Positions 2,381 through 19,354 of a stretch of DNA of 64,000 bases are shown piece by piece. Each line of letters opens with the position of its first letter. The stretch's first letter is position 1. Source of the DNA: a virus (Duplodnaviria > Caudoviricetes). The notes beneath the pieces are model-generated. The model was not told the DNA's origin. It did not search any database and saw nothing but the letters and a program-made list of their open reading frames with translations. Location: positions 1 to 64,000 of IMG/VR virus record IMGVR_UViG_2724679557_000005, one strand, 5' to 3'. The translations under genes were made by a program, and so were the position numbers.

Positions 2381-3601
2381 ATGAAAAATTATTATAAAAG
2401 AATACTTATAATGTTTGTAATGGTATTAACTATTATGAGTGTAGGAATAATGAAAAATGGAACTATAGCTAATGCGGCAACAGTTGGAGAACAATTGTTA
2501 CAACCAGAAGATGGTTGGAAAAGATATGATGACAATGACAGTAATATAACATACAGTACTAAATTATCACATGATAGTGAATCTTGGTTTAATAGTAATA
2601 GTGTAGAATGGTGCTATAATAACACAATAACAGATTGTGTATATGGAATTAATACTGAAAATGAGTATTGTGAATTTAATTTTTATGGTAGCAAATTAAG
2701 AGTAATTTCACCTTATTGGTGGTCTAGTACACCATCTGTAGATGTTTATATCGACAATAAACTAATTGGAAATTTTAGTGAAAAAGGTTCATCAGATAAA
2801 TATCAAGTTATGGTATATGAAATTGATGAGTTAAATTTCTCTAAACATTCTGTGAAAATAGTTAATAAGGATAATAGTGGAGCATATTTTTGTATAGATG
2901 CGATAGATACAGATTATAATGGTTATTTAGTAAATACAAATGAAGAAAATCAATCGATATCATTAAGTCAATCATCATTAAATTTAAAAGAAGGTATATC
3001 AGAAAAATTAACAGCAACAACTACACCTTCAGCGGTAGATATAAACTGGTCAAGCTCAGATGAAGCAGTTGCAACAGTTGATTCTAATGGAAATGTTAAA
3101 GCTATAAAAGAAGGACAAGCAACAATAACAGCAAAAATTAAAGGAACTGATATAAAATCTACTTGTATAGTTACAGTTACTAAAAAAGATGTTCCAGTAG
3201 AACCTGAACAACCAACAAATCCAGAGCAAGAGTATATAATTAATACTGCTTATGCTAAAGGTGATAATACTAACAATGCTAGTGGTCAAGTATCTATAAT
3301 ATTTAAGGGAGTAGCAGAGGCGCAATTAAAAGTTATAAAAACAGCAGATGTGGATTCTGTATATGTTGGAGACAATTTTACTTATACAATAGAAATTACT
3401 AACACAAGTGATAAAATAGCTAAATCAGTAGTTATTAAAGATAATGCACCCAATCACATTCAATTCATACCTAGTAAAGTAATAACAACTCAAGGTAAAG
3501 TAGATTCAAGTTCAACATATAAAAATATTGTAGTTAATGTTGGAGATATCCCACCATCAGGAAAAGTTATAATAAAAATCCCAGTTCTTGTAGTTGAATA
3601 A
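2381..3601 (+). CDS. Secreted protein: signal peptide, beta-sandwich/CBM-like domain, Ig-like (Big_2) domain, DUF11-like domain
   Basis: Signal peptide ending ANA; WSSSDEAVATVD..G.V Ig motif; KTAD...V.VGD.FTYTI.ITN motif. Confidence 0.75.
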   Translation: MKNYYKRILIMFVMVLTIMSVGIMKNGTIANAATVGEQLLQPEDGWKRYDDNDSNITYSTKLSHDSESWFNSNSVEWCYNNTITDCVYGINTENEYCEFNFYGSKLRVISPYWWSSTPSVDVYIDNKLIGNFSEKGSSDKYQVMVYEIDELNFSKHSVKIVNKDNSGAYFCIDAIDTDYNGYLVNTNEENQSISLSQSSLNLKEGISEKLTATTTPSAVDINWSSSDEAVATVDSNGNVKAIKEGQATITAKIKGTDIKSTCIVTVTKKDVPVEPEQPTNPEQEYIINTAYAKGDNTNNASGQVSIIFKGVAEAQLKVIKTADVDSVYVGDNFTYTIEITNTSDKIAKSVVIKDNAPNHIQFIPSKVITTQGKVDSSSTYKNIVVNVGDIPPSGKVIIKIPVLVVE

Positions 3602-5154: not shown

Positions 5155-5946
5155 ATGTCTAATTGGAAATGGTGTGTACAAGGTGAAAATGGAAAAATAA
5201 TAAAAGGATGGTATGAAAATAATGGAAAATGGTACTATTTAAATGATGAAGGCATAATGCAAACAAGTTGGATACAGGATAAAGATGAAAGATGGTACTA
5301 CTTAAAAAATGATGGTTCTATGGCTACTGGTTGGTTAAAAAGTCCCTATAGTGGTAAGTGGTTTTATTTAAATCCTGTAAGCAATGGTTATAAAGGAGAA
5401 ATGTATCGTGATGGTACTTATACAATAGATGGTAAAGAATATAAGTTCAATACTAGTGGTGCATGGATAGAAGATACTCTTGTTAGTACTATATGTATAG
5501 ATTTTATTAAATCATGGGAAGGCTATTTTGCTACTCCATATATAGATTGCGTAGGAGTTAAAACATTAGGTTATGGACTTACAGGAAAGGAAATAGAAGA
5601 TTTACCAGATACGATTACAGAAGAAAAGGCAACAGAGTTATTAAAAGATTGGATAAATAAAAAGTATGCTCCAGTAATAAAAAAAGATTTAGAGTTTAAA
5701 GGTATTGCATTAAAACAGCATGAATTTGATGCTTTGGTTTCATTTTCATACAATTGTGGCACAACAGGATTGTTAGGTTCTACACTATATAAAAATATCG
5801 TTGCTGGAATAAGAGATAAAAACACAATTACAGCTAATTTTGTTGCTTGGAGTAATGGTGGAGGTAAAAGAATAGAAGGACTTTACAGAAGAAGGACAAA
5901 GGAAGCAGCTATGTTTTTAAATGCTGATTATACAGGCAATAATTAA
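5155..5946 (+). CDS. Endolysin: N-terminal cell-wall-binding repeats + GH24 lysozyme
   Basis: WYYL..G.M.TGW repeats; EG-x7-D-x5-T catalytic motif; FDALVSFSYNCG and GL.RRR..E. Confidence 0.9.
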   Translation: MSNWKWCVQGENGKIIKGWYENNGKWYYLNDEGIMQTSWIQDKDERWYYLKNDGSMATGWLKSPYSGKWFYLNPVSNGYKGEMYRDGTYTIDGKEYKFNTSGAWIEDTLVSTICIDFIKSWEGYFATPYIDCVGVKTLGYGLTGKEIEDLPDTITEEKATELLKDWINKKYAPVIKKDLEFKGIALKQHEFDALVSFSYNCGTTGLLGSTLYKNIVAGIRDKNTITANFVAWSNGGGKRIEGLYRRRTKEAAMFLNADYTGNN

Positions 5947-6154
5947 ATATGTTATAATATGTGTGGCTAAATTACACATAAAATTAGAAAACATTTAAGG
6001 GTAGCAGATAGGAGAAATCTTATTTGTTACTCTTTTTCTTTTTATGGAAAACTTGGACAAGTTGTAGTATTATGTAAATATAATAAATAGCAAATACATT
6101 ATGTACAATTAATCTTATTAAAATTCGATATTTTATAAATAGGGGTGAAAAATA

Positions 6155-7237
6155 ATGGAGCTTAGCATTAAAGAAGAAAGTCTTTTAAATAAAATTGGAA
6201 TTAATGTATTCCCTAAAAATCGTAATTATTGGTTTATAAGAACTCAAGGTGGAAATTATTATGATGATTTTACAAATGAAAATTTTGTAGGAATTGAATG
6301 GGATGAAATTAGTGATTTGAACTTTATAAAAAGTGCGACAGAAGATCAGTGGAAAGAAAAAATAAAAAAATGCTATAAGGATGTTGATAAACCAGGATAT
6401 ATAATGAATCAGATTAAAAAGTTTGTTTATGATATAAAAAAAGGAGATATTGTATTAATTCCTAATGAAAAATCTAGATGGATTGCAATAGGAGAAATTT
6501 TAGATGACGATATAGAAATATATGAAGAGGATAAATCAGAAACAGATTTTGAAAGTTTACTTGATTATTTAGATGAATCAGATGATAAAGAAAAAAAAAT
6601 AATAATAAAAAAGCGTAGAAAGGTCAAATGGTTAAAAACATTTAAAAGAAGTGAATGGGATCCCTACTTATTAAATATTATTTATTCACATAGTGCAGTA
6701 GCAGATGCAAATAAATATAATATATTCATAGACCGTATGTTATCACAATTTTATATAAAAGGTGATGAAGGGTATTTTACCTATAGAATTAATAAAAAAT
6801 CTAATATACCATATTCAGATATGTTAAGTTTTTTAAATAATAATGATAAACTTATGAACTATATTTGTAATAAATTTCCTGAGTGGAAGTTTAATAAGGA
6901 TGATATTATATTAAAAGTTAATGTACAATCTAAAGGACCACTACAATTAAAAAGTAAAATGTTCACTATTTTAATTTGTGGAACAATAATAACAGCACTG
7001 TTTGGATCACATTTTAATTTTGAATTTTTGGGAGCTAAAGTAGACATAGAAAGTGAAGGTTTACCTAAATTAATATCAACTGTTATGGAAGTAAATGAAA
7101 AGATTATGAAAGAAAAAGAAGATGATGAAGAACTAAAACAATTAGTTAAAGACTTTAAAGAAAATCAAGAAAAATTAGAAATAGAAGTTCCGGAAAAACA
7201 AAATAAACTAGATAATGAACTAAATATAGAAAAATAA
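6155..7237 (+). CDS. Post-lysin moron: EVE/PUA-like N-terminal domain + C-terminal hydrophobic segment; candidate anti-phage protein
   Basis: YWFIRT.GG..Y..F....FVGIEW, IKKGDIVLIP, RRKVKW; hydrophobic ILICGTIITALFG. Confidence 0.5.
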   Translation: MELSIKEESLLNKIGINVFPKNRNYWFIRTQGGNYYDDFTNENFVGIEWDEISDLNFIKSATEDQWKEKIKKCYKDVDKPGYIMNQIKKFVYDIKKGDIVLIPNEKSRWIAIGEILDDDIEIYEEDKSETDFESLLDYLDESDDKEKKIIIKKRRKVKWLKTFKRSEWDPYLLNIIYSHSAVADANKYNIFIDRMLSQFYIKGDEGYFTYRINKKSNIPYSDMLSFLNNNDKLMNYICNKFPEWKFNKDDIILKVNVQSKGPLQLKSKMFTILICGTIITALFGSHFNFEFLGAKVDIESEGLPKLISTVMEVNEKIMKEKEDDEELKQLVKDFKENQEKLEIEVPEKQNKLDNELNIEK

Positions 7238-7258
7238 GCAATGAGTATAGTACATTGC

Positions 7259-7483
7259 TTATTTACAGGGATATATTGTTATAAACTTAAATATAAAAAT
7301 CAAACTACTAAGTATACTTAAACAATCACTAATGTAAATCTTTTTTAACATAATATAATCATTTTTAATAAAATATTTTAATATTATATTAAAAATGAAT
7401 TTAAACAAAAAATAAAAAAGAGAAAAAATAACCATAAATGTACCTAACTGTGATAGAAAACTTATAAAATTAGAAAAATACAT
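7259..7483 (-). CDS. Small two-TM membrane protein
   Basis: GAGGAGGTG RBS; two hydrophobic segments. Confidence 0.55.
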   Translation of the reverse strand: MYFSNFISFLSQLGTFMVIFSLFYFLFKFIFNIILKYFIKNDYIMLKKIYISDCLSILSSLIFIFKFITIYPCK

Positions 7484-7819
7484 TTAACAATCACCTCCTC
7501 TTTTAACTTAATTATAAGAATAAACTAATAAATAATCAATATAATTTATAATATTATATGTAATTATATGTTAAAAAGTTAAAATTAATAATTATTTAAA
7601 GATAATATATCTATGTGTATTCTTAAAAAATGGAGTTATTATTTGTAAATAAAATTTACTTTAAGGGCAGTATGTAGATTAAGTTCTATGTACTGTCCTT
7701 ATTTTGTAGCACAATTCAAAATATTAATATAATTCAAGTTGATTAATAAGAACATATTTTTATTTGAATTTTATAGAAAATATGTTAAAATATATAAAAG
7801 GTTAAGAGGGAGGGATATT

Positions 7820-8149
7820 ATGAAAAAATTATTTTTGTTTGGATTCTTAAGTTTAGCCATTTTAGGTACAACTTTTATTATGCCAACAACATTTTCTACA
7901 GTAGCGTATGCTTCTTACAATAATCCAGCTACAGGATTTTGGGGGCATATAGATGGTACTAGAGTTGCATTTAGAGAATCTAAATCAGTAAATTCAAATC
8001 GTATTAAATATTTTAGTAATAATGAATCTGTTGGCATTGAGAGTTTGAATGCAGGAACTGCTGATGGTTATCAATGGAGTAAAGTAACAGATTCCAATGG
8101 AAATACTGGTTATGTGGCATCTAAATATCTTTATACAGAGGGAGATTAA
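7820..8149 (+). CDS. Secreted SH3b-domain protein
   Basis: GAGGGAGG RBS before ATG 7820; signal peptide AYA; W.KV....G.TGYVASKYL. Confidence 0.75.
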   Translation: MKKLFLFGFLSLAILGTTFIMPTTFSTVAYASYNNPATGFWGHIDGTRVAFRESKSVNSNRIKYFSNNESVGIESLNAGTADGYQWSKVTDSNGNTGYVASKYLYTEGD

Positions 8150-8256
8150 AAACAATAATATAAAACTTAAATTTTATTTTAAAAATTATATTAATAAAAG
8201 CAGTAGGTAAAGAAATACTTACTGCTTTAATTTTATTATCTAAATAAAAAACTTGT

Positions 8257-8928
8257 CTATATTGTTAATGAATATTTTTCTTTAAAGGATTCTCTATCTA
8301 AATCAGTTATATACGCTTTAACATTTCGAGAAAATAATTTTGCTACTATAAAAGTCTTTAATCCTGCAATAAGTTCATAAGTACCCTCCTCATTTTTTCT
8401 TATCGCAATAGGTGTTAAATCCTTATAGTTGCTCATATTTTTTATGTTGAATATTGATATTCTAGAATTTAAATGTGTTTTTTCAACTAATTTAACGTTG
8501 TTTATATCAACGTCTTGAAATTCAATTTCTTCTAATCTTTTAAACCACATATTATCATAATCTCTTTGTTGAAAATAAACATCTTGTTTATAGTGTTTAT
8601 CTATTTTATCATCATGATCTAATATCTGTTTTTGTTCTTTTAAGCCTACTTTTTTTATAGCAATAGATTTCACATAAATATAAGTTTTATTTTCTTTTAA
8701 TGTTCTTATTTCAAATTTTCCATAAATATTCAAATATAAATCTAATATATCGGGAAGGTTTTTAAAATTTCGCCATTGTCTTTTGGTTATCTCGACCATA
8801 ATTATTGATGATTGTAAATTAAAAATATCCTCATTTTCATTTTTAAATAAAACTACTGCAGAACCATCTTTATTAGTTTTAAGTATTTTATCGATTTTTC
8901 CATTGATTTTTATTATTGATTTACTCAT
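8257..8928 (-). CDS. Hypothetical protein with C-terminal ParB/Srx-like segment
   Basis: PIAIRK..EGTYELIAG.....AKL resembles the ParB N-domain. Confidence 0.45.
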   Translation of the reverse strand: MSKSIIKINGKIDKILKTNKDGSAVVLFKNENEDIFNLQSSIIMVEITKRQWRNFKNLPDILDLYLNIYGKFEIRTLKENKTYIYVKSIAIKKVGLKEQKQILDHDDKIDKHYKQDVYFQQRDYDNMWFKRLEEIEFQDVDINNVKLVEKTHLNSRISIFNIKNMSNYKDLTPIAIRKNEEGTYELIAGLKTFIVAKLFSRNVKAYITDLDRESFKEKYSLTI

Positions 8929-9061
8929 TTTCTCATCCCCTATTTCAATTGCTTATAGACATATTATAACATTTATAGTTAATTAATTACAATTATATTG
9001 AACTTAATTGCAATTAATAGTAAAATAATACACGTAAATATAAAAATAGGGGGATAACAAA

Positions 9062-9550
9062 ATGAAAAACTTTAAAAAGCTACTTTCAGCATTGCTTGTA
9101 TTTTGTGGATTAGCAATGTTAAATCCTGTACAAGCTAATGCAGCATGGAAACAAAATAATACTGGATGGTGGTATACACAAGGAAGTTCATATTCTGTAG
9201 GTTGGGAACAAATAGATGGAAAGTGGTATTACTTTGATTCAAATGGTTATATGAAAACTGGCTGGATTAATGACAATGGTAACTGGTATTATTGTTGGTC
9301 TAATGGACAAATGGCTCAGAATTGCTATGTTGGAAATTATTATTTAAACAACAATGGTGTTTGGACTACAAACACTGGAAGTTCATCTACTGGAGATTTT
9401 GTTACAGATAGTCAAATCGCTTATTTATCAGCAACAGGAGATAAATATCATAAGATACCTAATTGTGGCAAGATGAATCCAAACAAAGCTATAAAAACTA
9501 CAGTTAATGATGCGAAAGTAAAACATAAAATTTGTGAGAAGTGTTGGTAA
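9062..9550 (+). CDS. Secreted cell-wall-binding-repeat protein with C-terminal Cys/His Zn-binding module
   Basis: Signal peptide, WYYF..GYM.TGW repeats, KYH...C..M...C..C. Confidence 0.75.
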   Translation: MKNFKKLLSALLVFCGLAMLNPVQANAAWKQNNTGWWYTQGSSYSVGWEQIDGKWYYFDSNGYMKTGWINDNGNWYYCWSNGQMAQNCYVGNYYLNNNGVWTTNTGSSSTGDFVTDSQIAYLSATGDKYHKIPNCGKMNPNKAIKTTVNDAKVKHKICEKCW

Positions 9551-9704: not shown

Positions 9705-10781
9705 ATGAAAAATGCTAAAAAACTACTTAGTTTATCTTTAGCAGTATTGTTATCAACATTTACTTTAGGATGTAAACAAGCTAATGCTATTAACAAAACT
9801 AATATTGAAACTACTAAAACACAAGAAACCTCAGTAGGAAATATGAAAGTCCACTATATTGATGTAGGACAAGGGGATAGCGAACTTATACAGGTTGATG
9901 GAAAGAATATTTTAATTGATGCAGGATGTAATGATAACAAAGCATTGAACTACTTAAAATCTATTGGAATAAGCAAACTAGATTATGTACTTGCCACACA
10001 TCCACATGAAGACCACATTGGAGGAATGACAAGTATAATTAATAATTTTGAAATTGGAGAATTTTATGCTCCTAAAGTTAATCATACGACTAAGACTTTT
10101 GAAAATATGATAAAGGCATTACAAAATAAAGGTTTAAAACTTACAGCACCAACTATAGGTGATACATTAACTATAGGTAATGCTACATTACAATTTTTAG
10201 CTCCTAATAGTGCTACCTATCAAGATATGAATAACTATTCAATAGTGTGTAAATTAAGATTTGGTAATACATCTTACTTATTTACAGGAGATGCAGAAGC
10301 ATTAAGTGAAGGCGAAATATTAGCCAAGCAATTAGATATTAGTGCAGACGTACTTAAGTTAGGTCATCATGGAAGTCATTCTTCAACTTCTCAAGCATTT
10401 TTAGACAAAGTAAATCCAAGATATGCTATTGTTTCTTGTGGTAAAGGAAATGATTATGGTCATCCTCATCAAGAAACAATTGATAAACTAAATGCAAAAA
10501 ATATTAATATATTAAGGACAGATGTAAGTGGAACTATAATATCTAGTTCAGATGGAAATAATATAAATTTTAATGTTAATGCAAGTGGAACTAATACAGG
10601 AAATACAACTAACAATAGCACTTCAGAGACTAAGACAAAAAGCAATAGTGTTTGGGTAGCGAATAAAACTTCAAAGGTTTATCATTCAAGCAAGGATTGC
10701 AGTAATATGAAATCTCCAAGTGAAATGTCTTTAGAAGATGCTAAAGCAAAGAGCTTAAGACCATGTTCTAAATGTAATTAA
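9705..10781 (+). CDS. ComEC/Rec2-like metallo-beta-lactamase-fold lipoprotein
   Basis: Lipobox LGC; DVGQGD, THPHEDHIGG, GHHGS, YGHPH; C-terminal YH...C...C..C. Confidence 0.85.
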   Translation: MKNAKKLLSLSLAVLLSTFTLGCKQANAINKTNIETTKTQETSVGNMKVHYIDVGQGDSELIQVDGKNILIDAGCNDNKALNYLKSIGISKLDYVLATHPHEDHIGGMTSIINNFEIGEFYAPKVNHTTKTFENMIKALQNKGLKLTAPTIGDTLTIGNATLQFLAPNSATYQDMNNYSIVCKLRFGNTSYLFTGDAEALSEGEILAKQLDISADVLKLGHHGSHSSTSQAFLDKVNPRYAIVSCGKGNDYGHPHQETIDKLNAKNINILRTDVSGTIISSSDGNNINFNVNASGTNTGNTTNNSTSETKTKSNSVWVANKTSKVYHSSKDCSNMKSPSEMSLEDAKAKSLRPCSKCN

Positions 10782-10908: not shown

Positions 10909-11820
10909 ATGAAAGATTTATTTGAAGTAAACTATAAAAATTTAAATACAGAGGAAGGAATGGCAATTATATATATAATATATTCTCCGTATTCAGATAT
11001 TATATATATAGGTAATACAATTAAAAATCTAAAAGAAAGAAAAAATGAACATTTAAGATATCTAAGAAAAAATAATCATCACTGTAAGGCGTTACAGGAA
11101 TTATATAATTATATTGGTGAAGATAATATAAAATTTAGAATAGTAGACAAATGTGAAGAAAGAAATAGAAAATATTTAGAAAGGTATTATCATACTATGA
11201 ATGAACTTGAATATGCAGTATGTAGTCATAAACATAAAGGATGTGAGTTTTTTTGGGACTTTTATGACTATAAGACAGAACCTTATTTTGAACCACTAAG
11301 AAAAAATGAAAAATTTTTAATTAAAATTTATATGGATTATTATAGACAAAAAGATCTGCATAAATATTTTGATCCAAGTGAATTATTAAATGAGGCATTA
11401 AAGAGTGGGATAAAACTCGTAGAAGATGAGACATATAATAAAGAATTTAGAACAATTATAACAAATGTATTACAAGATTTAGATATAGAAGAAGTAAATA
11501 TACATGATACAACAAGTAAATATATTTATATTAAGATGTTATATGACATTTATGAGGATAGAACAGATGAAGCTAAAAAAATGTTTATAGATTATATATA
11601 TAAAGAAAGAAATTTATATAGACAATTACTGAGTTCTGCAATAGCTTATTCAACAGAATTTGAAACAGGAAAAGTAAATACATTAAAATATATGAATCGT
11701 GTTATAAATCATATATTTAACAGTTATAATCCACGTAAACCTAGATATTCTGATTTAGTTTATTATTATTGGATAGAAGAATGTTGTAGATATTTATTTA
11801 AAAGGAAATATTCATGGTAA
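10909..11820 (+). CDS. GIY-YIG nuclease family protein
   Basis: IIYII...IYIG.T....R...H motif. Confidence 0.7.
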   Translation: MKDLFEVNYKNLNTEEGMAIIYIIYSPYSDIIYIGNTIKNLKERKNEHLRYLRKNNHHCKALQELYNYIGEDNIKFRIVDKCEERNRKYLERYYHTMNELEYAVCSHKHKGCEFFWDFYDYKTEPYFEPLRKNEKFLIKIYMDYYRQKDLHKYFDPSELLNEALKSGIKLVEDETYNKEFRTIITNVLQDLDIEEVNIHDTTSKYIYIKMLYDIYEDRTDEAKKMFIDYIYKERNLYRQLLSSAIAYSTEFETGKVNTLKYMNRVINHIFNSYNPRKPRYSDLVYYYWIEECCRYLFKRKYSW

Positions 11821-11868
11821 CATAGATTTTAATGTAATAATATGGTAATATAAATTTAGGGTGATATT

Positions 11869-12069
11869 ATGGGAGTTAAGAACAAATTAAAAGAGATACG
11901 GATGAGAGAATATCTAATGGCTCCAGGAGAATTTGCAAAATTCCTTGGTATGAGTATTAAAACATATAGTGGATGGGAAAATGAATACAGTAGACCAACA
12001 TTAGAAAAAGCATTAGAAGTTGCAAACAAATTAAATAAAAATGTTAATGATATATGGTACTTAGAATAA
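11869..12069 (+). CDS. XRE-family HTH transcriptional regulator
   Basis: NKLKEIR...EFAKFLG....YSGWE....P. Confidence 0.85.
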   Translation: MGVKNKLKEIRMREYLMAPGEFAKFLGMSIKTYSGWENEYSRPTLEKALEVANKLNKNVNDIWYLE

Positions 12070-12189
12070 CTAGGTATCATATTTTTTATATAATTTTCTT
12101 AAAATACAAAAATATTTTTTAAAATTAGGAAATTTTCTTACATGTGGAGCATATAGTATAACATAGTAAGAAATAAGGAGTTAAAAAGT

Positions 12190-13077
12190 ATGTTAATTGG
12201 AGTAGATTTAGGAAATTTTGGAGTAAATACATCTGAAAATGATTTCTTTTATAGTAGAATTTCAGATATTAGTAACTTTTCGGAGGAAAATAAAATTAAT
12301 TATGAGGGAATTGATTTATATATAGGAGATGGAGAGTTTTCTACAGATTGGAATAAGAGCCAAAAAGAGAATACTTTGCCTTTACTTTTTTCAGCACTTG
12401 CTAGAAGTTCAAATGAAAATTTCTTTCAAATTGTTTTAGGATTACCAATACAACAGTTTAAAAATAATAAAGAGGATTTTAAAAAGTATATTGAAGATAA
12501 CAGAGGCAAGACAGTGATATACAAAGGTATCAAAAGGGAAATTATTATATCAGATGTTCTTGTAGCTCCTGAAGGTGCTGCTGCTTATTACAATTTAACC
12601 ATTGAACAAAAGAAAATGATAGGTAATAAACCTTTAATAATTGTTGATATTGGTGGAAGAACCACAGATGTATGCTTATTTGAAGATAAAAAGATAAGAT
12701 TTGTTAAAACAATACCTGTAGGGATGTTAAATGTATATAAGGATATTATAGATAATGTTAATACAACTTATACAGAAGATTATAAGTTAGAAGATGGTGA
12801 ATTGATATTAAGGGAAGGTTTATTTCTTAGAGGAAAACAACAAGATATTACTTTTATTAAACCTATATTACAAAGACATTTTAATAGCATATATAAAGAT
12901 TTACAGTTTAATTTTAACACTTCTAAAGGATATGTATTACTAACTGGTGGTGGAGGTATTACATTTAAACAAGCATTTAAAAATAGATTAGAAAATTTAA
13001 TTATTAGTAATGATCCTGTTTTTGATAATGCAAAAGGTTTTAAAAGATTGGGGGAATCAATATGGCAAGAAAAATAA
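12190..13077 (+). CDS. parM: ParM/StbA family actin-like ATPase
   Basis: GVDLGN, GLP, PEG, IVDIGGRTTD, LLTGGG, NAKG actin-fold motifs. Confidence 0.85.
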   Translation: MLIGVDLGNFGVNTSENDFFYSRISDISNFSEENKINYEGIDLYIGDGEFSTDWNKSQKENTLPLLFSALARSSNENFFQIVLGLPIQQFKNNKEDFKKYIEDNRGKTVIYKGIKREIIISDVLVAPEGAAAYYNLTIEQKKMIGNKPLIIVDIGGRTTDVCLFEDKKIRFVKTIPVGMLNVYKDIIDNVNTTYTEDYKLEDGELILREGLFLRGKQQDITFIKPILQRHFNSIYKDLQFNFNTSKGYVLLTGGGGITFKQAFKNRLENLIISNDPVFDNAKGFKRLGESIWQEK

Positions 13078-13253
13078 GTGTAAGCTTTAAAGAGACTTCA
13101 AAGGACTTGAAATTATATAAATATCTTAATTCTTTAGATGACAAGTCAGCAGATATTAAAGATCTATTGAGAAAGGCTTTAAAGGATGTAAAGCTAGATG
13201 ATGACGAAATAAAAGAAAATGTTGATGAAGATGTTAATATATTAGATTTTTAG
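13062..13253 (+). CDS. ParR-like ribbon-helix-helix adaptor
   Basis: Overlaps parM stop; ISVSFK strand + helices; acidic tail. Confidence 0.6.
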   Translation: MARKISVSFKETSKDLKLYKYLNSLDDKSADIKDLLRKALKDVKLDDDEIKENVDEDVNILDF

Positions 13254-13264
13254 GAGGTATTGTA

Positions 13265-13501
13265 ATGAGTTTATATGATTATTTAGAAAATAAATACAAC
13301 GAATTAAACGAAGAAACAGACATTAATGAAAGTGGATTATTAGATCAATTTATGCAAACATGGTTAGAAGAAAATTTTGCAAATGATTCATTATATGAAG
13401 AATTTTTAGATGGAGAATGTTTGGGATATTATTATAGAAACTTTGAGATAGATCATAAGAACAGAAGAATAGAATTTAGCATAGAAAAGGCTGAATTGTA
13501 A
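13265..13501 (+). CDS. Acidic hypothetical protein
   Basis: AGGAGG RBS; cotranscribed with parM/parR. Confidence 0.6.
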   Translation: MSLYDYLENKYNELNEETDINESGLLDQFMQTWLEENFANDSLYEEFLDGECLGYYYRNFEIDHKNRRIEFSIEKAEL

Positions 13502-13502
13502 G

Positions 13503-13570
13503 AAAAAAGCCTACCTGATGTATAGGTAGACTTAGGTGATTTAACTTATAGCGTAACGAGTTACACTCTA
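13503..13570 (-). ncRNA. Putative small RNA with sporulation-type promoter and intrinsic terminator
   Basis: Minus strand GGAATA-N17-CATATACT, hairpin GTGTAACTCGTTACGC, terminator AAGTCTACCT...AGGTAGGCTTTTTT. Confidence 0.35.
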
Positions 13571-13625
13571 AGTATATGCAAACAATATTTAAAAATATTC
13601 CTATTTTAATGAGAAAATAAAAATT

Positions 13626-13703
13626 TTATAAGAAATGAGCTGCAAATTCCATTACACCGTATGCAATTGTATAACCCAAAACTATTGCGAATTCGACTGT
13701 CAT
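13626..13703 (-). CDS. 25-aa hydrophobic peptide MTVEFAIVLGYTIAYGVMEFAAHFL
   Basis: AAGGACGGTGA RBS; upstream GAATA-N15-CAAATAATA (sigG/F-like) at 13761-13733. Confidence 0.5.
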   Translation of the reverse strand: MTVEFAIVLGYTIAYGVMEFAAHFL

Positions 13704-13771
13704 TATAATCACCGTCCTTAACTTTATACTCATATTATTTGCAATAAAGTAATTTTTATTCAGGAGGAAGT

Positions 13772-14170
13772 ATGAAAACTGTAATGAATCATCAGCAATA
13801 TTTACAATGGAAAAATGGTGATAAAAATACATTAGATATAAAATTAGAAAACTTAGGAGTGAAAGATAGTAAGAAATTTGAGCAACATATGGTAGTAGGA
13901 CTTGCTATAGCATTAATGTTTATTAGTAAATCAGAATTAGCATTTGCGGACGATGGAATAGATCAACTAGGAAATAAACTCTTATATTATGTTAGGAAAG
14001 GTGGAAGATGGATTGCAATTATATGTGCAAGTGTAGAGATTATAAGAAGTGGAATGAAAAAGGGTGGAAGTGCTTCTGAAATAGGACAAGTTGTAATTAA
14101 ATATTCTTTAATGTATGCATGTTTATATATTTTAACATGGATTTTTGATCAAATAGATAGTGCATTTTAA
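13772..14170 (+). CDS. VirB2/TrbC pilin-like membrane protein
   Basis: Signal-like segment ending AFA followed by two hydrophobic helices; AGGAGG RBS. Confidence 0.5.
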   Translation: MKTVMNHQQYLQWKNGDKNTLDIKLENLGVKDSKKFEQHMVVGLAIALMFISKSELAFADDGIDQLGNKLLYYVRKGGRWIAIICASVEIIRSGMKKGGSASEIGQVVIKYSLMYACLYILTWIFDQIDSAF

Positions 14171-14184
14171 GAAAGGAGTTTTTT

Positions 14185-14382
14185 ATGATAAAAGATTTTT
14201 TTGGATGGTTAGGTAAAAGCACCTTAACTCAAATAGCTGAATTTAGTTATTGGCCATGTTTAATAGTAGGTATGGGAGCTATGTTATTGTATATATCAGG
14301 TCAAAAAAAAGCAGGTAAATATGTTCCAACATCTATAATTATCTACTATTTATTACAATGTTTTAAGGCGGCGGTTAAATGA
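14185..14382 (+). CDS. Small two-TM membrane protein
   Basis: Hydrophobic; overlaps the ATPase start. Confidence 0.6.
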   Translation: MIKDFFGWLGKSTLTQIAEFSYWPCLIVGMGAMLLYISGQKKAGKYVPTSIIIYYLLQCFKAAVK

Positions 14383-16703
14383 AATCATTAGCATTAAGTA
14401 AGTATTTTGAGATAATTCATCCAGTATATATTTACTTAAAGATATTGCCACACAAAAGTATGAGAAATTATAATACATCTGAAATAGCTAAGACAATGAG
14501 TGATACTTATAAGGGAATCATAAGAAGAGTTCATAGAGAAGAAAAAAAGATATTTATAGAATCTGATTTTAAAATTAGTTATGTAATTGATATTACTAAA
14601 AAAGATATAAGTTTTTATTTTTTAGTACCTAAAGTTCATAAAGATATAATTAAAGAAAAAATTAATGAAACATGGTCCAAAGCTACAATTGAAGAAATAG
14701 AAGATATACCTCAATATACAGAAAATAAATTAGTATATCAATTAGGGTATAAAAAAGATGATGCTTTAAGTCTTAAAGTAGATAAAAGAAATAATGAACC
14801 ACTTAATCAAATTTTAAATGTAGTAAATATAATGAAAGATGATGATAGAGTAACTATAGCGTATAATTTTATGCCATGCTCTCAATTTGGATGGCGTGAA
14901 AAATATGATTCTATGTTACAAAAATTTAATGACAAAAAACCCTTAGATCGTAAAATAACATTTGAATTTGCACTAAAAATTATAGTAGGTGTTATTGTTG
15001 GTACATTGGATACAATAGTAGCTGTTTTAAATGATTTTATTGGGAACAATGATTATGATGATAATAATTTATATAAAAAGATTATGATTGCTTTTGAAGA
15101 AAAACCAACATTATCTAATAACACATTAAAAAAGAAAGATTCTAACATTATAAGTACACAAATAGCCGTTATTTCAGATTCTATAGATAAAACTAGAATG
15201 AACAATAATATTATATCTGTATGTCAAAGTTTCAATACATTAAGAGAAGACAATGAGCTAGTTTATAAAAAAGTAAAGAAAAAAATAAATAATAGATTTA
15301 ATTTTAAAGATTATTCCTACAAAATAGATACTAATTTATGTAGTGTTGATGAGTGTAAAAATTTCATACAAGTACCAGGGTATGAATTGTTAAAAGAACA
15401 TAAGATAGATAGCATTAATATAGAAGAAACTAAGATACCGGAAGTGTTACAAGAAGGATATATTCAATTAGGTAATGTTAAATATAAAGGTAGCAATACT
15501 ATGGCCTATATTGAAGATAGTTACGATAAAGGAAGTTTACCATTAGTTCTGGTAGGGGCACAAGGAGCAGGAAAGTCTACTTTTGGAGCTAATTATTATA
15601 GATTTGCTAACTTAAGAGAAGAGGGCGGAGTTGTAATTGATTTTATTAAAAATTGCGAACTTAGTGATGAAATTATAAGTTATTTACCTGATGATAAAGT
15701 TGTTATACTAGATTTAATTAATGAAAGTGATATTCAGGGTTTTGCTTTTAATGAATTGAATATTTCTAAAGATATGAATTCTTTTAAAAAGAGTGAATTG
15801 GCAAATTTGCAGAGCCAACAAATAGTGGAATTTGTAGATGCAGTTAATCCAGAACAACCGTTACAATCAAGAATGAGAAGATATTTGAGTTCCGCTGCCA
15901 CTATAGTTTTTAGTACAGGAGAAAATTCTATAAAGGAAGTAATTAGATGTTTAGAAAGTCATAAGGCTAGAATAGAATATTTAAATATGCTAAGTGAAAA
16001 AGATAAGGAATATCTAAGTGAAGAAGTAGAGGATATGGAAGCTCTTAATGAATATTCTAAAGCAACAAAAGACACTCCAGAAATTGAAGTTATAGGAACT
16101 AAAGAAAGTAAAATTGAGGGAATATTAGATAGAATATCTCTATTGAGAAGTGATTTTAAACTTAAATATATGTTTAATAAAGATGGATCTAATAATATTA
16201 ACTTTGTAGATGAACTCGAAAAAGGAAAAGTTATAATATTTAAAATGCCACAAGATAGTTTTAAAAAACATGCTAAAAATGTTATAACAACTTTCTTATT
16301 AAGTAAGATTTGGATTGCTACAGAGGTAAGAGGAGCATTGCATAAAAAGCCTAAAAAAACACATATATTTATTGATGAAGTATTTCAAACTAAAACAGCT
16401 ATGAAAATGTTAGCCAATGATGATATTTTACCTCAAACAAGAAAATTTGGGTGTAAATTTATATTTAGTTGTCAAGGAACGGAACAAATAAATATACTTA
16501 TAGATACGCTTATAGATGCAGGAACTTCATTTATGTTTTTAACAGGTACTAGTGAGAAAGATTTTGAAAAGTTTAAAAATAAATTAGGAGATTTTGAATT
16601 TGATGATTTGAAAAATATGGAGCAATATAGTAGTTTAAATTTAATTTATTATAGTGGTGGATATTCTAGTTTTATATCAAAATTACCAAAACCAATAAAA
16701 TAA
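14379..16703 (+). CDS. VirB4/TrwB/HerA-FtsK superfamily ATPase
   Basis: Walker A GAQGAGKS, Walker B IFIDE, RKFG arginine-finger motif, SCQ; internal hydrophobic segment. Confidence 0.75.
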   Translation: MKSLALSKYFEIIHPVYIYLKILPHKSMRNYNTSEIAKTMSDTYKGIIRRVHREEKKIFIESDFKISYVIDITKKDISFYFLVPKVHKDIIKEKINETWSKATIEEIEDIPQYTENKLVYQLGYKKDDALSLKVDKRNNEPLNQILNVVNIMKDDDRVTIAYNFMPCSQFGWREKYDSMLQKFNDKKPLDRKITFEFALKIIVGVIVGTLDTIVAVLNDFIGNNDYDDNNLYKKIMIAFEEKPTLSNNTLKKKDSNIISTQIAVISDSIDKTRMNNNIISVCQSFNTLREDNELVYKKVKKKINNRFNFKDYSYKIDTNLCSVDECKNFIQVPGYELLKEHKIDSINIEETKIPEVLQEGYIQLGNVKYKGSNTMAYIEDSYDKGSLPLVLVGAQGAGKSTFGANYYRFANLREEGGVVIDFIKNCELSDEIISYLPDDKVVILDLINESDIQGFAFNELNISKDMNSFKKSELANLQSQQIVEFVDAVNPEQPLQSRMRRYLSSAATIVFSTGENSIKEVIRCLESHKARIEYLNMLSEKDKEYLSEEVEDMEALNEYSKATKDTPEIEVIGTKESKIEGILDRISLLRSDFKLKYMFNKDGSNNINFVDELEKGKVIIFKMPQDSFKKHAKNVITTFLLSKIWIATEVRGALHKKPKKTHIFIDEVFQTKTAMKMLANDDILPQTRKFGCKFIFSCQGTEQINILIDTLIDAGTSFMFLTGTSEKDFEKFKNKLGDFEFDDLKNMEQYSSLNLIYYSGGYSSFISKLPKPIK

Positions 16704-16767: not shown

Positions 16768-16938
16768 ATGAGTGAAGAAGATAGATTAAAAGAAATTAGT
16801 GAATCTTTAAAAATAATTGCAGATAGTACTAAGCTAAAACCAAAGAAAACAAGTAATATAATAGCAATTGGATGGCTATTTATAGGTATAATTTCTTTAT
16901 ATGCATTGTATGAAGTATATAAAGTATTTTGTAGATAA
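16768..16938 (+). CDS. 56-aa single-TM protein (not in ORF track)
   Basis: AGAGGAG RBS; MSEEDRLKE...IIAIGWLFIGIISLYALY; followed by terminator 16940-16968. Confidence 0.65.
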   Translation: MSEEDRLKEISESLKIIADSTKLKPKKTSNIIAIGWLFIGIISLYALYEVYKVFCR

Positions 16939-17013
16939 GGACCAGGAGTTATAATCCTGGTCTTTTTTGGTAGCTTCATTTTAATTAAATTTATAAATAA
17001 ATTTCCTTAATCC

Positions 17014-17072
17014 TTCCCTTGTTTTTATCAATTCTTCCCTTGCTTCCCTTGTTTCCCTCACGCTTTCCCTTA
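17014..17072 (+). repeat. Five TTCCCT(TG) direct repeats; putative integrase arm-type sites near attR
   Basis: Copies at 17014, 17035, 17044, 17053, 17065, about 115-170 bp from the junction. Confidence 0.55.
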
Positions 17073-17185
17073 ATAATAAAATAAACATAGATAACATAAA
17101 ATACAAAATCCCCTGCAATCCTTTAAAACACTATAATTAAGATATAATAGGACAAGCCTAGATACATATAAATTTGTACCCTTTC

Positions 17186-17644
17186 CAAGTTATTAGTGGT
17201 ATAGGCTTTTTAGGTGCAGGTACAATAATAGTAGTTGGGAAAAATCAAGTTAAGGGACTTACAACAGCAGCTGGACTTTGGGCATGCGCTTGCATGGGAC
17301 TAGCTATTGGAATAGGGTTTTATGAAGGTGCTATTATAACATGTATATTTTTAATGGGGGTAGTCACTGGACTTCATAAACTTGATGAATATATGCAAAC
17401 ACATTCTAAAACTATTGATATTTATGTTGAACTTGAGGATATTAAAGGGGTTATGAACTTTATGACCTGCGTTAAAAAAGATGGAACTCAAATATTTAAT
17501 GTTGAAATTAAGAATAAAAATAGTGATGTAAAAGTTATTGCACTAGCTATGACATTAAAGCTTAATCAAAGCTGTGATCATATGGAATATATTTTACAAC
17601 TTCATCATATAGAAGGAGTTTGCATGGTTGAAGAACTGATATAG
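17186..17644 (+). pseudogene. 3' part of MgtC/SapB family gene interrupted by prophage 1
   Basis: Matches intact paralogue 18656-19354 only from QVISGIGFLGAG onward; first ~78 codons absent. Confidence 0.85.
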
Positions 17645-18655: not shown

Positions 18656-19354
18656 ATGAATGATTTAATGTTATACTTAAGAGAAGTTAATATGGCTTCA
18701 ATAATTCTAAGGCTTACTTTAGCAACACTTTGTGCAGGAATTATTGGTGCAGAAAGAGGAAGAAAAAATAGACCTGCAGGATTTAGGACACATATTTTAG
18801 TTTGTATTGGTGCCACACTCATTATGATAACAAGTCAATATATGAGAGATGTTCTTCATAGTACTGGAGATATAACTAGATTGGGTGCACAAGTTATTAG
18901 TGGTATAGGCTTTTTAGGTGCAGGTACAATCATAGTAGTTGGAAAAAATCAAGTTACAGGTCTTACAACAGCAGCTGGTCTTTGGGCATGTGCATGTATG
19001 GGTTTAGCCATTGGAATAGGTTTTTACGAAGGTGCAATTATAGCATGTATATTTATGCTTGCTGTAGTTACAGGACTTCATAAATTAGATTTATATTCAA
19101 GAACTCACTCTAGGATCATGGATGTCTATACAGAACTTAGAGATATTAAAGGGGTTGCTAATTTTATGAAAACTGTACAAGCTGATGGAACTAAGATATC
19201 TAATATTGAAGTAAAAAAAGCCACTACGAATAAAGATGATCGTATAATAGCTTTAACAATGACATTAAAGTTATCTCAAAAATGCAATCATTCAGATTAT
19301 ACTCTTCAACTTCATAATATTGAAGATGTATGCTGTGTAGAAGAGATAATATAA
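18656..19354 (+). CDS. MgtC/SapB family membrane protein
   Basis: IG.ER....AG.RTH, AQVISGIGFLGAG, GLTTAA.LW. Confidence 0.9.
   Translation: MNDLMLYLREVNMASIILRLTLATLCAGIIGAERGRKNRPAGFRTHILVCIGATLIMITSQYMRDVLHSTGDITRLGAQVISGIGFLGAGTIIVVGKNQVTGLTTAAGLWACACMGLAIGIGFYEGAIIACIFMLAVVTGLHKLDLYSRTHSRIMDVYTELRDIKGVANFMKTVQADGTKISNIEVKKATTNKDDRIIALTMTLKLSQKCNHSDYTLQLHNIEDVCCVEEII

Follow-up and report, generated by a model that had tools for sequence, protein, structure and literature searches.

The closest described counterpart of the locus reported here is the cassette of genes 31 to 32 of the virulent phage SPP1, in which gene 31 (94 aa, with a ribbon-helix-helix (RHH)-like pattern) is followed by 31.1 (126 aa), 31.2 (105-108 aa) and 32 (836 aa). 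In the passages of the SPP1 re-annotation that deal with this region (Godinho 2018, PMC6316719), genes 31.2 and 32 are given as non-essential, the genes are assigned to an early transcription unit, membrane segments are predicted for gp31.1 (3) and gp31.2 (2), the C-terminus of gp32 resembles TrwB, VirB4 and FtsK by HHpred, and gp31.1, gp31.2 and gp32 are suggested as a possible trans-membrane translocon. Other systems with which the locus can be compared are the VirB2-VirB3-VirB4 part of type IV secretion systems (T4SS), the ParMRC systems of R1 and pSK41 and, by description, the cmdABCDEF genes of Streptomyces. Here we analyse a stretch of 64,000 nucleotides (the window), which is the first 64 kb of a 90.5-kb 'provirus' record (IMGVR_UViG_2724679557_000005). 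Its prophage part, from position 1 to ~17.1 kb, belongs to an integrated prophage of Clostridium, siphovirus-type, and carries at its right end an array of genes for an actin-like ParM, an RHH protein, two small membrane proteins and a large ATPase. We read this region as two modules, a ParMR pair and a clostridial SPP1-type cassette, and give this reading even chances of being right.

All the proteins that the initial annotation had named in this array are present, and all the genes lie on the plus strand: a ParM-type actin-like ATPase (295 aa, 12190-13077), a putative RHH-like ParR (63 aa, 13062-13253) whose gene overlaps the parM stop and whose fold is inferred from its sequence pattern, a VirB2/TrbC-like membrane protein (132 aa, 13772-14170; assigned by sequence and alignment), a two-helix membrane protein (65 aa, 14185-14382) and, overlapping its stop, a VirB4-type two-domain ATPase (774 aa, 14379-16703; assigned by folds and alignment). 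Between the RHH and the 132-aa genes stands an acidic open reading frame (ORF), orf78 (78 aa, 13265-13501, plus strand), with no homologue in 32 loci. The array had been described as an operon; a minus-strand terminator, a small RNA (sRNA) candidate and a micro-ORF between orf78 and the 132-aa gene do not fit a single plain operon.

Alignment of close relatives of the ATPase retrieved 27 genomic loci, 21 of them with a full upstream flank, within a wider set of 32 loci. In all 21, two ORFs for small membrane proteins directly precede the ATPase gene, and the 132-aa and 65-aa proteins of the window have sequence relatives in 18 and 17 of them, respectively. An RHH homologue lies just upstream of the membrane genes in 19/21 loci, the other two having an unlabelled ORF of 74-76 aa there. 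A tblastn search with the window ATPase found SPP1 gene 32 among 108 phage records, and the order of a membrane protein of 130-156 aa, at least one small protein and then the ATPase recurs in phiCp-D, TPDSL_ph2, the Clostridium botulinum C/D phage-plasmid p2, SPO1 (gp27.8 to gp27.4) and Staley. The window shares with SPP1 a homologous ATPase after an RHH gene and two small membrane genes, an antisense micro-ORF at the place that corresponds to the gap between 31 and 31.1, and a position downstream of lysis genes, which is also found in TPDSL_ph2 and p2. By homology of the ATPase and by gene order, the cassette of the window is thus the predicted clostridial counterpart of gp31.1-gp31.2-gp32. 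For the small proteins the homology is by synteny only: hhalign of the 132-aa and 65-aa families against gp31.1 and gp31.2 gave no significant match, which speaks against equating them, and their equivalence is proposed because of position, size and topology. The RHH family against gp31 was likewise not significant by hhalign (E 0.022, probability 2%). Unlike the element in the window, SPP1 is virulent, has no ParM and no Xre gene, lacks the promoter-like motif described below (P1/P2) and carries the genes as an early sigma-A cassette.

The initial annotation had called the ATPase VirB4/HerA-like. Curated sequence models do not place it in the VirB4 family, and this counts against the assignment: no Pfam family matched at E <= 0.01, and the sole NCBIfam match was TraD, at 16.7 bits for a cut-off of 1221. 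The protein belongs to the phage family of unknown function phrog_5156 (E 4.1e-113); a HMMER search of the whole library gave 551 clusters (50% identity) at E <= 1e-3, most of the alignments being full-length, and an alignment of 81 members showed invariant Walker A (G398/K399) and Walker B (D666/E667) residues. Its profile matched the PDB sequences of TrwB (1.7e-4) and VirB4 (9e-3). The structural comparisons were more specific. With the AlphaFold model of the full protein (predicted local distance difference test (pLDDT) 92.9, predicted template modelling score 0.85), the best 9 Foldseek matches were full-length TrwK/VirB4 of plasmid R388, and TrwB and HerA ranked below these and covered the C-terminal half only. 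The C-terminal domain (352-774) aligned with Thermoanaerobacter VirB4 (4ag5) with a VIA-align Z of 27.9 (root-mean-square deviation (rmsd) 3.5, 336 aa), and this domain alone cannot discriminate, because TrwB and DndH-C (Z 26.4 each) and HerA (Z 24.8) score close to VirB4. When residues 1-350 were folded alone (pLDDT 84.4) and compared with 48,161 chains with no Foldseek prefilter, TrwK (7o42_A) stood clear with a Z of 14.8 (rmsd 3.6, 242 aa), the next match reaching 8.7; by Foldseek the best 10 matches of this domain were all TrwK. The two domains together therefore make the modelled ATPase VirB4-like throughout, rather than of the type IV coupling protein (T4CP), FtsK or HerA type, and its predicted structure is a two-domain VirB4-type fold. 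The VirB4 half of the earlier label thus stands for both domains and the HerA half falls, since the N-terminal domain matches VirB4 alone. The protein, which we take to be soluble, shows no clear transmembrane segment; the region where confidence in the model is lowest includes a hydrophobic helix, at ~195-221.

These comparisons also bear on the possibility that the module is a superinfection exclusion or defence 'moron', that is, a membrane complex directed against the DNA of incoming phages or plasmids, which it would block or expel, or against the membrane-inserted ejection proteins of a rival phage, which it would extract, with ParMR as a mere neighbour. The HerA- and DndH-type defence ATPases are indeed near VirB4 in the C-terminal fold, with Z values of 24.8-26.4 against 27.9; the place of the module, with the lysis genes on one side and the attachment end on the other, is the usual one for lysogenic conversion genes; and the cassette is non-essential in SPP1, according to the part of its re-annotation that covers these genes (PMC6316719). 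The N-terminal domain, however, points to VirB4 alone, and an exclusion function would explain neither the restriction to phages of spore formers nor the promoter motif that does not look like sigma-A, both described below. We therefore regard this explanation as improbable.

Two small membrane proteins accompany the ATPase. In the 132-aa protein, an N-terminal part of ~40 aa leads to a hydrophobic segment that ends in AFA, behind which come two hydrophobic helices; in its family (18 aligned), the N-terminal part varies, the last residues of the leader are small and the two-helix core is conserved. This is the TrbC/VirB2 layout, with a putative small-x-small cleavage site, two helices and a short charged loop; long leaders are typical of T4SS propilins. 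The match to the TrbC/VirB2 family PF04956 stayed below the cut-off (14.7 bits for 27.9, E 0.035; 2/18 members match), and it spans nearly the whole model; in a language-model search the first named cluster was TrbC (0.90, 181 shared features). The protein can thus be called weakly TrbC/VirB2-like, and to that extent the pilin-like character proposed for it was borne out. The 65-aa protein, for which neither a family match nor a language-model match was found, consists of two hydrophobic helices around a conserved loop, G-x-KKAGKY; the loop of the 132-aa protein, KKGG, is basic as well. Since the 65-aa profile also matches the 132-aa proteins, the two are paralogous hairpins. Profiles of the small proteins found no match among PDB sequences, and the place of the 65-aa gene, whose stop overlaps the ATPase start, fits VirB3. 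The cassette accordingly shares with VirB2-VirB3-VirB4 (TrwL/TrwM/TrwK of R388; 4ag5) the VirB4 fold, the order of pilin-like protein, small membrane protein and ATPase, and, in the 132-aa protein, the long leader ending in small residues ahead of two hydrophobic helices.

The differences from type IV secretion systems are equally clear: (i) the cassette has no VirB6, B8, B9, B10, B11, D4 or relaxase; (ii) its ATPase lacks the Pfam VirB4 signature; (iii) its small proteins are paralogous; and (iv) it is borne by phages, virulent ones included. The record starts inside the prophage, so that the integrase, replication and head genes lie outside the view and the absence of other T4SS genes, which the initial annotation had noted, is checkable only in the 17 kb present and in complete relatives. 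Among the 78 features of the complete p2 element (52.5 kb), no relaxase, VirD4, VirB6/8 or sigma factor is annotated; they include a serine recombinase, repressors, replication genes, terminase, portal, capsid, tail, an amidase and an accessory region with the cassette. The SPP1 annotation and 29 of the 60 features of TPDSL_ph2, the portions covered here, likewise contain no VirB6/VirB8-type part, coupling protein or relaxase. As annotated, then, the complete relatives do not encode a full T4SS, and the objection that one elsewhere in the element would account for these genes finds nothing to rest on in p2. It is against this background that a virion-independent transfer from cell to cell, by a relic or minimal conjugation device, has to be judged. 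The VirB2-, VirB3-, VirB4-like gene order is what such a device would show, and the RHH protein could by analogy act as a relaxosome accessory factor; against it, the annotation of the complete elements shows neither a relaxase or coupling protein nor a VirB6, a VirB8 or a wall hydrolase, all but one of the 37 plasmids that carry the ATPase are typed non-mobilizable, and the cassette occurs in virulent phages. We regard this explanation as remote.

The safest description is a structural one, of a minimal VirB2/VirB3/VirB4-like membrane ATPase module that is borne by phages, has an RHH protein and antisense control elements of its own and, in Clostridia, is coupled to ParMR. In our reading it amounts to the inner-membrane 'engine' of type IV secretion, with neither the channel nor the coupling protein nor a relaxase. 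VirB4 proteins provide the energy for assembly and draw pilin from the membrane; to our knowledge, VirB4-type ATPases are not DNA pumps. The initial annotation had seen in the array a machine that pumps DNA, and this part of it is not sustained, the ATPase being of VirB4 type and accompanied by no T4CP-type partner.

The other module is a ParMR pair. ParM matches phrog_691 (E 1.5e-54) and PF17989, and its best solved relative is the ParM of C. botulinum (PDB 7x54, E 2.3e-28). As in ParMRC, the RHH-like gene overlaps the parM stop and its product has a ParR-like tail; the protein has no Pfam match and no PDB sequence match, and its RHH pattern and position fit ParR. Among the 21 clostridial loci, ParM lies directly before the RHH gene and on the same strand in 13, at 3-4.5 kb on the other strand in 2, and is missing within 6 kb in 6. 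The 63-aa copy has an acidic/hydrophobic C-terminal tail that is found only in copies after ParM, and ParR binds ParM through such a tail; most RHH copies in ParM-less positions are shorter and lack it, and both forms occur in one locus (L011), where one copy is paired with a ParM of its own and another stands beside the cassette. As the tail tracks ParM, the two appear to be gained and lost jointly, on an RHH core that is itself part of the cassette. Contigs of at least 121 kb carry 9 of the 13 ParM-linked loci, and the window lies on one as well; ParM is therefore mostly in integrated prophages, for which vegetative partition is not needed, and unlikely to serve plasmid partition of that kind. 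The locus differs from ParMRC in this integrated setting, in a promoter region that is not sigma-A-like, in an RHH family that also occurs without ParM and without the tail, and in having no iteron array. Two copies of AATTTTCTTA are present (12092-12101 and 12131-12140, plus strand; the second overlaps the -35 part of P1), as had been pointed out, and they are a weak parC or operator candidate: these are two 10-bp copies instead of several iterons, the relatives have other two-copy repeats, and two copies of a 10-mer are weak on their own in DNA of 26% GC.

As side observations on ParM, the gene is split into two ORFs in a Mobilitalea metagenome-assembled genome (L017, 3829-4725), and Bacillus phage 0305phi8-36 (NC_009760.1, 120010-125015) has a ParM-like ORF207 ~3 kb from ORF201, which weakly matches gp32-type ATPases (E 6e-6); in this jumbo phage, ParM and the cassette may have become neighbours a second time, independently.

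A promoter-like motif stands ahead of the array. The sequence AGGAA-N17-GCATATAGT that the initial annotation had noted upstream of parM is present at 12127-12157, within the element that we call P1 (GGAAAT-N16-CATATAGTA, 12126-12166, plus strand), which lies 32 nt before the parM ATG. The regions upstream of ParM or RHH genes in the relatives have a common motif, GGAAAC-TTTT, 12 variable bases and (G)CATAnnnTA, located 31-101 nt before the start codon. In its strict form, AC-N15-17-CATAnnnTA, it occurs at the place of P1 in 12/23 loci, where ~0.3 would be expected from its density, and a second copy occurs on the minus strand, just before the sRNA stem-loop, in 9/26 loci (~0.9 expected); in the window this is P2 (13570-13603, minus strand, spacing 17, with AT for AC), which faces the sRNA candidate. 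By a position weight matrix (PWM), P1 is the sole strong site in the 64-kb window (23.4 bits, P1 having been left out of training), the only two strong sites in the 52.5-kb p2 both flank its RHH gene, and single sites lie ahead of the RHH-like gene in TPDSL_ph2 (18.1 bits) and at 779-819 of the Staley locus (L040; 16.8 bits), the latter just after the RHH gene and facing the micro-ORF. The C of CATA is kept in 20/20 aligned copies in spite of a GC content of 26%.

The sigma-K consensus is a -35 AC with a CATA-type -10, in the account of it in Saujet 2013 (PMC3789822). The strict pattern also lies 31-35 nt before the orthologues of dpaA (genome G003) and yabG (G001) in genomes that bear the cassette, and, ahead of parM as well as of the 132-aa gene, a consensus scan of the plus strand found nothing that resembles a sigma-A site. 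The sigma-K spacer is of 16-17. In its geometry the motif therefore matches a sigma-K promoter. That a mother-cell sigma factor reads P1/P2, as initially proposed, is in our judgement a tentative conclusion that falls a little short of an even call: the recurrence at 12/23 loci and the same pattern before dpaA and yabG favour it, and the window's own copies, with AT in place of AC, do not. A sigma-A promoter with a module-specific activator, or an operator, is a doubtful but serious candidate, and reading by another sigma factor is somewhat unlikely. Two further assignments were tried and rejected, sigma-H for AGGAAAT, because the -10 keeps C where sigma-H needs A and the P2 copies have no AGGA, and sigma-E, for which there is no ATA at -35.

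Opposite the array, P2 stands at promoter distance from an sRNA candidate of ~70 nt (13500-13572, minus strand), made up of a 5' stem-loop and an intrinsic terminator (13533-13507), with no Rfam match; none was found anywhere in 11700-14300. Its fold (-20.2 kcal/mol, z -3.97) was equalled by 0/200 shuffles. The two-hairpin layout is present in 5/6 loci folded, in which the stem sequences differ and the hairpin is kept, whereas in the sixth (L004) the fold did not beat shuffles (z -0.01). No consensus pairs came out of RNAalifold when 19 of these regions were aligned by MAFFT; since this alignment is rich in indels, the sequences were folded singly. Next to the sRNA comes a hydrophobic micro-ORF of 25 codons with a Shine-Dalgarno site (13626-13703, minus strand, antisense to the array). 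Micro-ORFs of 17-27 codons pass a simple filter in 20/27 loci, SPP1 included, and one is seen by eye in Staley; on their own strand there is, also by eye, an extended -10-like TGnTA box. As no sigma-A-like site was found on the plus strand, the membrane and ATPase genes are most likely read from P1, by a transcript that would run antisense through the micro-ORF.

A gene for a short hydrophobic peptide, with a strong ribosome-binding site and a structured sRNA at its side, recalls the type I toxin-antitoxin loci of Bacillus prophages (txpA/RatA, bsrG/SR4). The peptide here is of 17-27 aa, and, unlike in those loci, the clostridial sRNA is in tandem instead of antisense, and the natural antisense partner would be the P1 transcript; micro-ORF and sRNA are a possible pair of this kind. 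With regard to individual phages, the SPP1 locus (L003) has an unannotated 17-codon hydrophobic micro-ORF with a strong ribosome-binding site at 3104-3157 (minus strand), in the gap between genes 31 and 31.1, and in Staley the motif faces the micro-ORF, a convergent arrangement as in type I toxin-antitoxin loci. The same gap is listed as a non-coding segment inside the transcription unit in the relevant part of the 2018 re-annotation of SPP1 (PMC6316719).

Such a pair would also suit an ordinary phage-plasmid maintenance region, composed of ParMR and a type I toxin-antitoxin-like micro-ORF and sRNA, in which P1/P2, as an operator or an activator-dependent sigma-A promoter, would be bound by the RHH or another protein of the module, and the ATPase would act in vegetative cells, in a role that has nothing to do with sporulation. 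Many relatives are on contigs or plasmids of 40-60 kb typed non-mobilizable, CATAnnnTA includes TAnnnT, the core of a sigma-A -10, the motif always adjoins the RHH gene and is partly palindromic (GGAAAC-TTTCC) in one locus (L008), and the -10-like box of the micro-ORF agrees with this too. On the other side, the two boxes of the motif differ, unlike the repeated subsites of RHH operators; the C of CATA is invariant at this GC content; P2 is placed at promoter distance in front of the two-hairpin RNA; the 9/13 ParM-linked loci on large contigs look chromosomal; and the helix-turn-helix (HTH) gene that precedes parM in the window is absent from TPDSL_ph2, SPP1 and Staley. We think a pure maintenance region unlikely.

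The phages that carry the ATPase are, with one exception, named for spore-forming hosts. tblastn searches with the ATPases of the window, SPP1 (gp32), SPO1 (gp27.4) and Staley gave 108, 107, 146 and 103 phage records, respectively, whose hosts, by name, are Bacillus, Geobacillus (including 'Deep-sea thermophilic phage D6E'), Lysinibacillus, Brevibacillus, Alicyclobacillus, Clostridium and Terrisporobacter, plus one Microcystis. With none of the four queries did a phage of Staphylococcus, Streptococcus, Lactococcus, Listeria or Enterococcus appear, and such phages are numerous in the collection. The carriers are of many kinds (SPP1-like, SPO1-like, SPbeta-sized, Tsamsa-like, Basilisk/Slash-like and phage G types), and the 37 plasmid records with a match come from Clostridium (32), Bacillus (3), Alicyclobacillus (1) and Thermoactinomyces (1), 36 of them being typed non-mobilizable. 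The survey proposed earlier, namely whether the gene is confined to phages of spore formers, thus has a positive answer with one exception, as far as names go and without correction for shared ancestry. The exception, Microcystis phage MaeS (MT362618.1), is an 80-kb record and the only match outside the Firmicutes; its ATPase is like that of Basilisk/Slash-type Bacillus phages, and it may be worth verifying the host given for it.

Three things together, the restriction by host, a motif like that of sigma-K and a ParM that sits in integrated prophages, make a sporulation-linked role our best single guess for the module, one suggested by gene content and motif and held with less than even confidence. 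The module would act in sporulating host cells and tie the fate of the phage genome to the spore. The array would be read from P1, a non-sigma-A promoter for which sigma-K is the best fit, and read-through to the membrane and ATPase genes would be gated by the convergent micro-ORF transcript and the P2 sRNA. The ATPase, probably a hexamer like VirB4, would dock at the cytoplasmic membrane, onto oligomers that the two hairpin proteins form there, and use ATP to insert, extract or push a substrate (DNA, protein or the hairpin proteins themselves), and the RHH protein would mark phage DNA, its ParR-tailed form letting ParM filaments move it. A bolder version, in line with the initial proposal of a minimal machine that pumps phage DNA across a membrane, for example into the forespore, would be a VirB2/VirB3/VirB4-type machine of phages of endospore formers, turned on from a mother-cell (sigma-K-type) promoter, which acts on the RHH-tagged genome at the sporulation membranes; in Clostridia, ParM filaments would push this genome in the direction of the forespore, and it would be delivered into the developing spore, or locked to it, with no need of virions. 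We judge this complete scenario very unlikely; if true, it would be a phage-encoded route into dormancy distinct from SpoIIIE.

Development and a membrane-located ATPase have been brought together before. The cmdABCDEF genes of Streptomyces, in the portion of that report drawn on here (Xie 2009, PMC2782261), encode non-conjugative small membrane proteins and a membrane-located ATPase, are developmentally regulated and are needed for chromosome segregation and spore septation, and the term 'VirB4-like' occurs there once. They differ from the genes of the window in being chromosomal, actinobacterial and exospore-related, and are likened to them by description only. FtsK/SpoIIIE-like genes of Bacillus phages have also been discussed with sporulation, and are known to us by description only (PMC4113786).

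A number of observations weigh against the sporulation-linked role: (i) The host restriction rests on phage names, and phages with hosts of one clade draw on a common gene pool. Of 401 genomes sampled, 19 match the ATPase at 1e-15 and 5 nearly full-length; SpoIVA is present in 5/5 genomes with a full-length ATPase, but, being present in 323/401 overall, says nothing. (ii) The loose pattern of the motif is not enriched overall (82 matches, 86 in shuffles), and only its recurrence at the same place in relatives lifts it beyond chance. Neither PWM nor pattern finds it in the SPP1 or SPO1 loci, and the SPP1 cassette sits in an early sigma-A unit and can be dispensed with. (iii) Both P1 and P2 of the window have AT where the sigma-K -35 has AC, with the -10 box and spacing fitting; the strict pattern is absent before dpaA of a third genome (G004) and before two cotJ loci, that is, from 3/5 host promoters; and the sigma-A core within CATAnnnTA, mentioned above, counts here as well. 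(iv) The conserved GGAAAC-TTTT exceeds what sigma-K requires and could mark a module-specific activator or another sigma factor, and Staley has a sigma factor gene near its cassette. (v) The cassette occurs in most phages without ParM, virulent SPP1 included, and SPP1, SPO1, Staley and TPDSL_ph2 have none beside it. (vi) As VirB4 is not known to pump DNA, any reading as a DNA pump needs an extra assumption, and a prophage that is integrated enters the spore with the chromosome in any case.

For SPP1, both the cassette and the idea of a translocon have already been published, in the section of PMC6316719 that treats these genes. What appears to be new is the assignment of the N-terminal domain to the VirB4 fold, the pair of pilin-like paralogues, the conservation of the RHH gene and the micro-ORF, the P1/P2 motif, the co-variation of ParM and the ParR tail, and the host restriction. 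The literature searched, including PMC13212656 by term search, yielded no functional study of gp32-type proteins and no link of these to sporulation. How phage genomes enter spores and what they do there is an open question of phage-host biology, and the function of gp31.1-gp32 has remained unknown since it was flagged in 2018; the present analysis joins both into one testable proposal, that of a T4SS-type engine borne by phages and confined to those of spore formers, to which, in Clostridia, a sporulation-type promoter and an actin-like motor would be joined. Because SPP1 remains viable when it loses the cassette, Bacillus subtilis offers a straightforward test. If the link with sporulation is wrong, the module would still be the smallest natural VirB4-based assembly, and a clean system in which to see how VirB4 acts on hairpin membrane proteins.

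Decay of the module, whose frequent occurrence had been named as evidence against the initial proposal, is rare among the loci seen, amounting to one split ATPase, the split ParM mentioned above and one remnant. The split ATPase is that of phiCp-D (L001), in two ORFs at 6974-9389, and the remnant, of 59 aa, is in C. akagii (L032, 6247-6426). In Staley, a sigma factor gene and an integrase lie just downstream of the ATPase (5424-6581).

The first gene of the array is the Xre-type HTH gene (66 aa, 11869-12069, plus strand; PF01381, E 5.8e-9), with a terminator-like hairpin at its 3' side (12052-12082, plus strand); homologues lie directly upstream on the same strand in 11/21 clostridial loci. 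Just ahead of it, at 10909-11820, is a 303-aa GIY-YIG protein of the homing-endonuclease type, which has no homologue in 32 related loci. Further upstream, two secreted proteins (9062-9550 and 9705-10781) have in common a short C-terminal Cys motif (YH..C...C.KC); one has choline-binding repeats, and the other is a metallo-beta-lactamase-fold lipoprotein with a weak match to anti-Pycsar Apyc1. The remainder of the prophage part consists of tail-fibre genes, a lysin (5155-5946) and accessory genes up to ~17.1 kb. The interval from the ATPase gene to the end of the prophage holds, at 16768-16938, a 56-aa ORF that has a single hydrophobic segment and a terminator-like hairpin of its own. Chromosomal genes follow from 17.2 kb: a 5'-truncated mgtC-like gene (17174-17644), GDPD, an intact mgtC paralogue (18656-19354), panBCD, mutS, mutL, miaA, lexA, xerD and miaB. 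The region 16980-17644, in which TTCCCTT is repeated four to five times within ~80 bases (17005-17075) ahead of the truncated gene, looks like the prophage-chromosome junction, placed within an mgtC-family gene.

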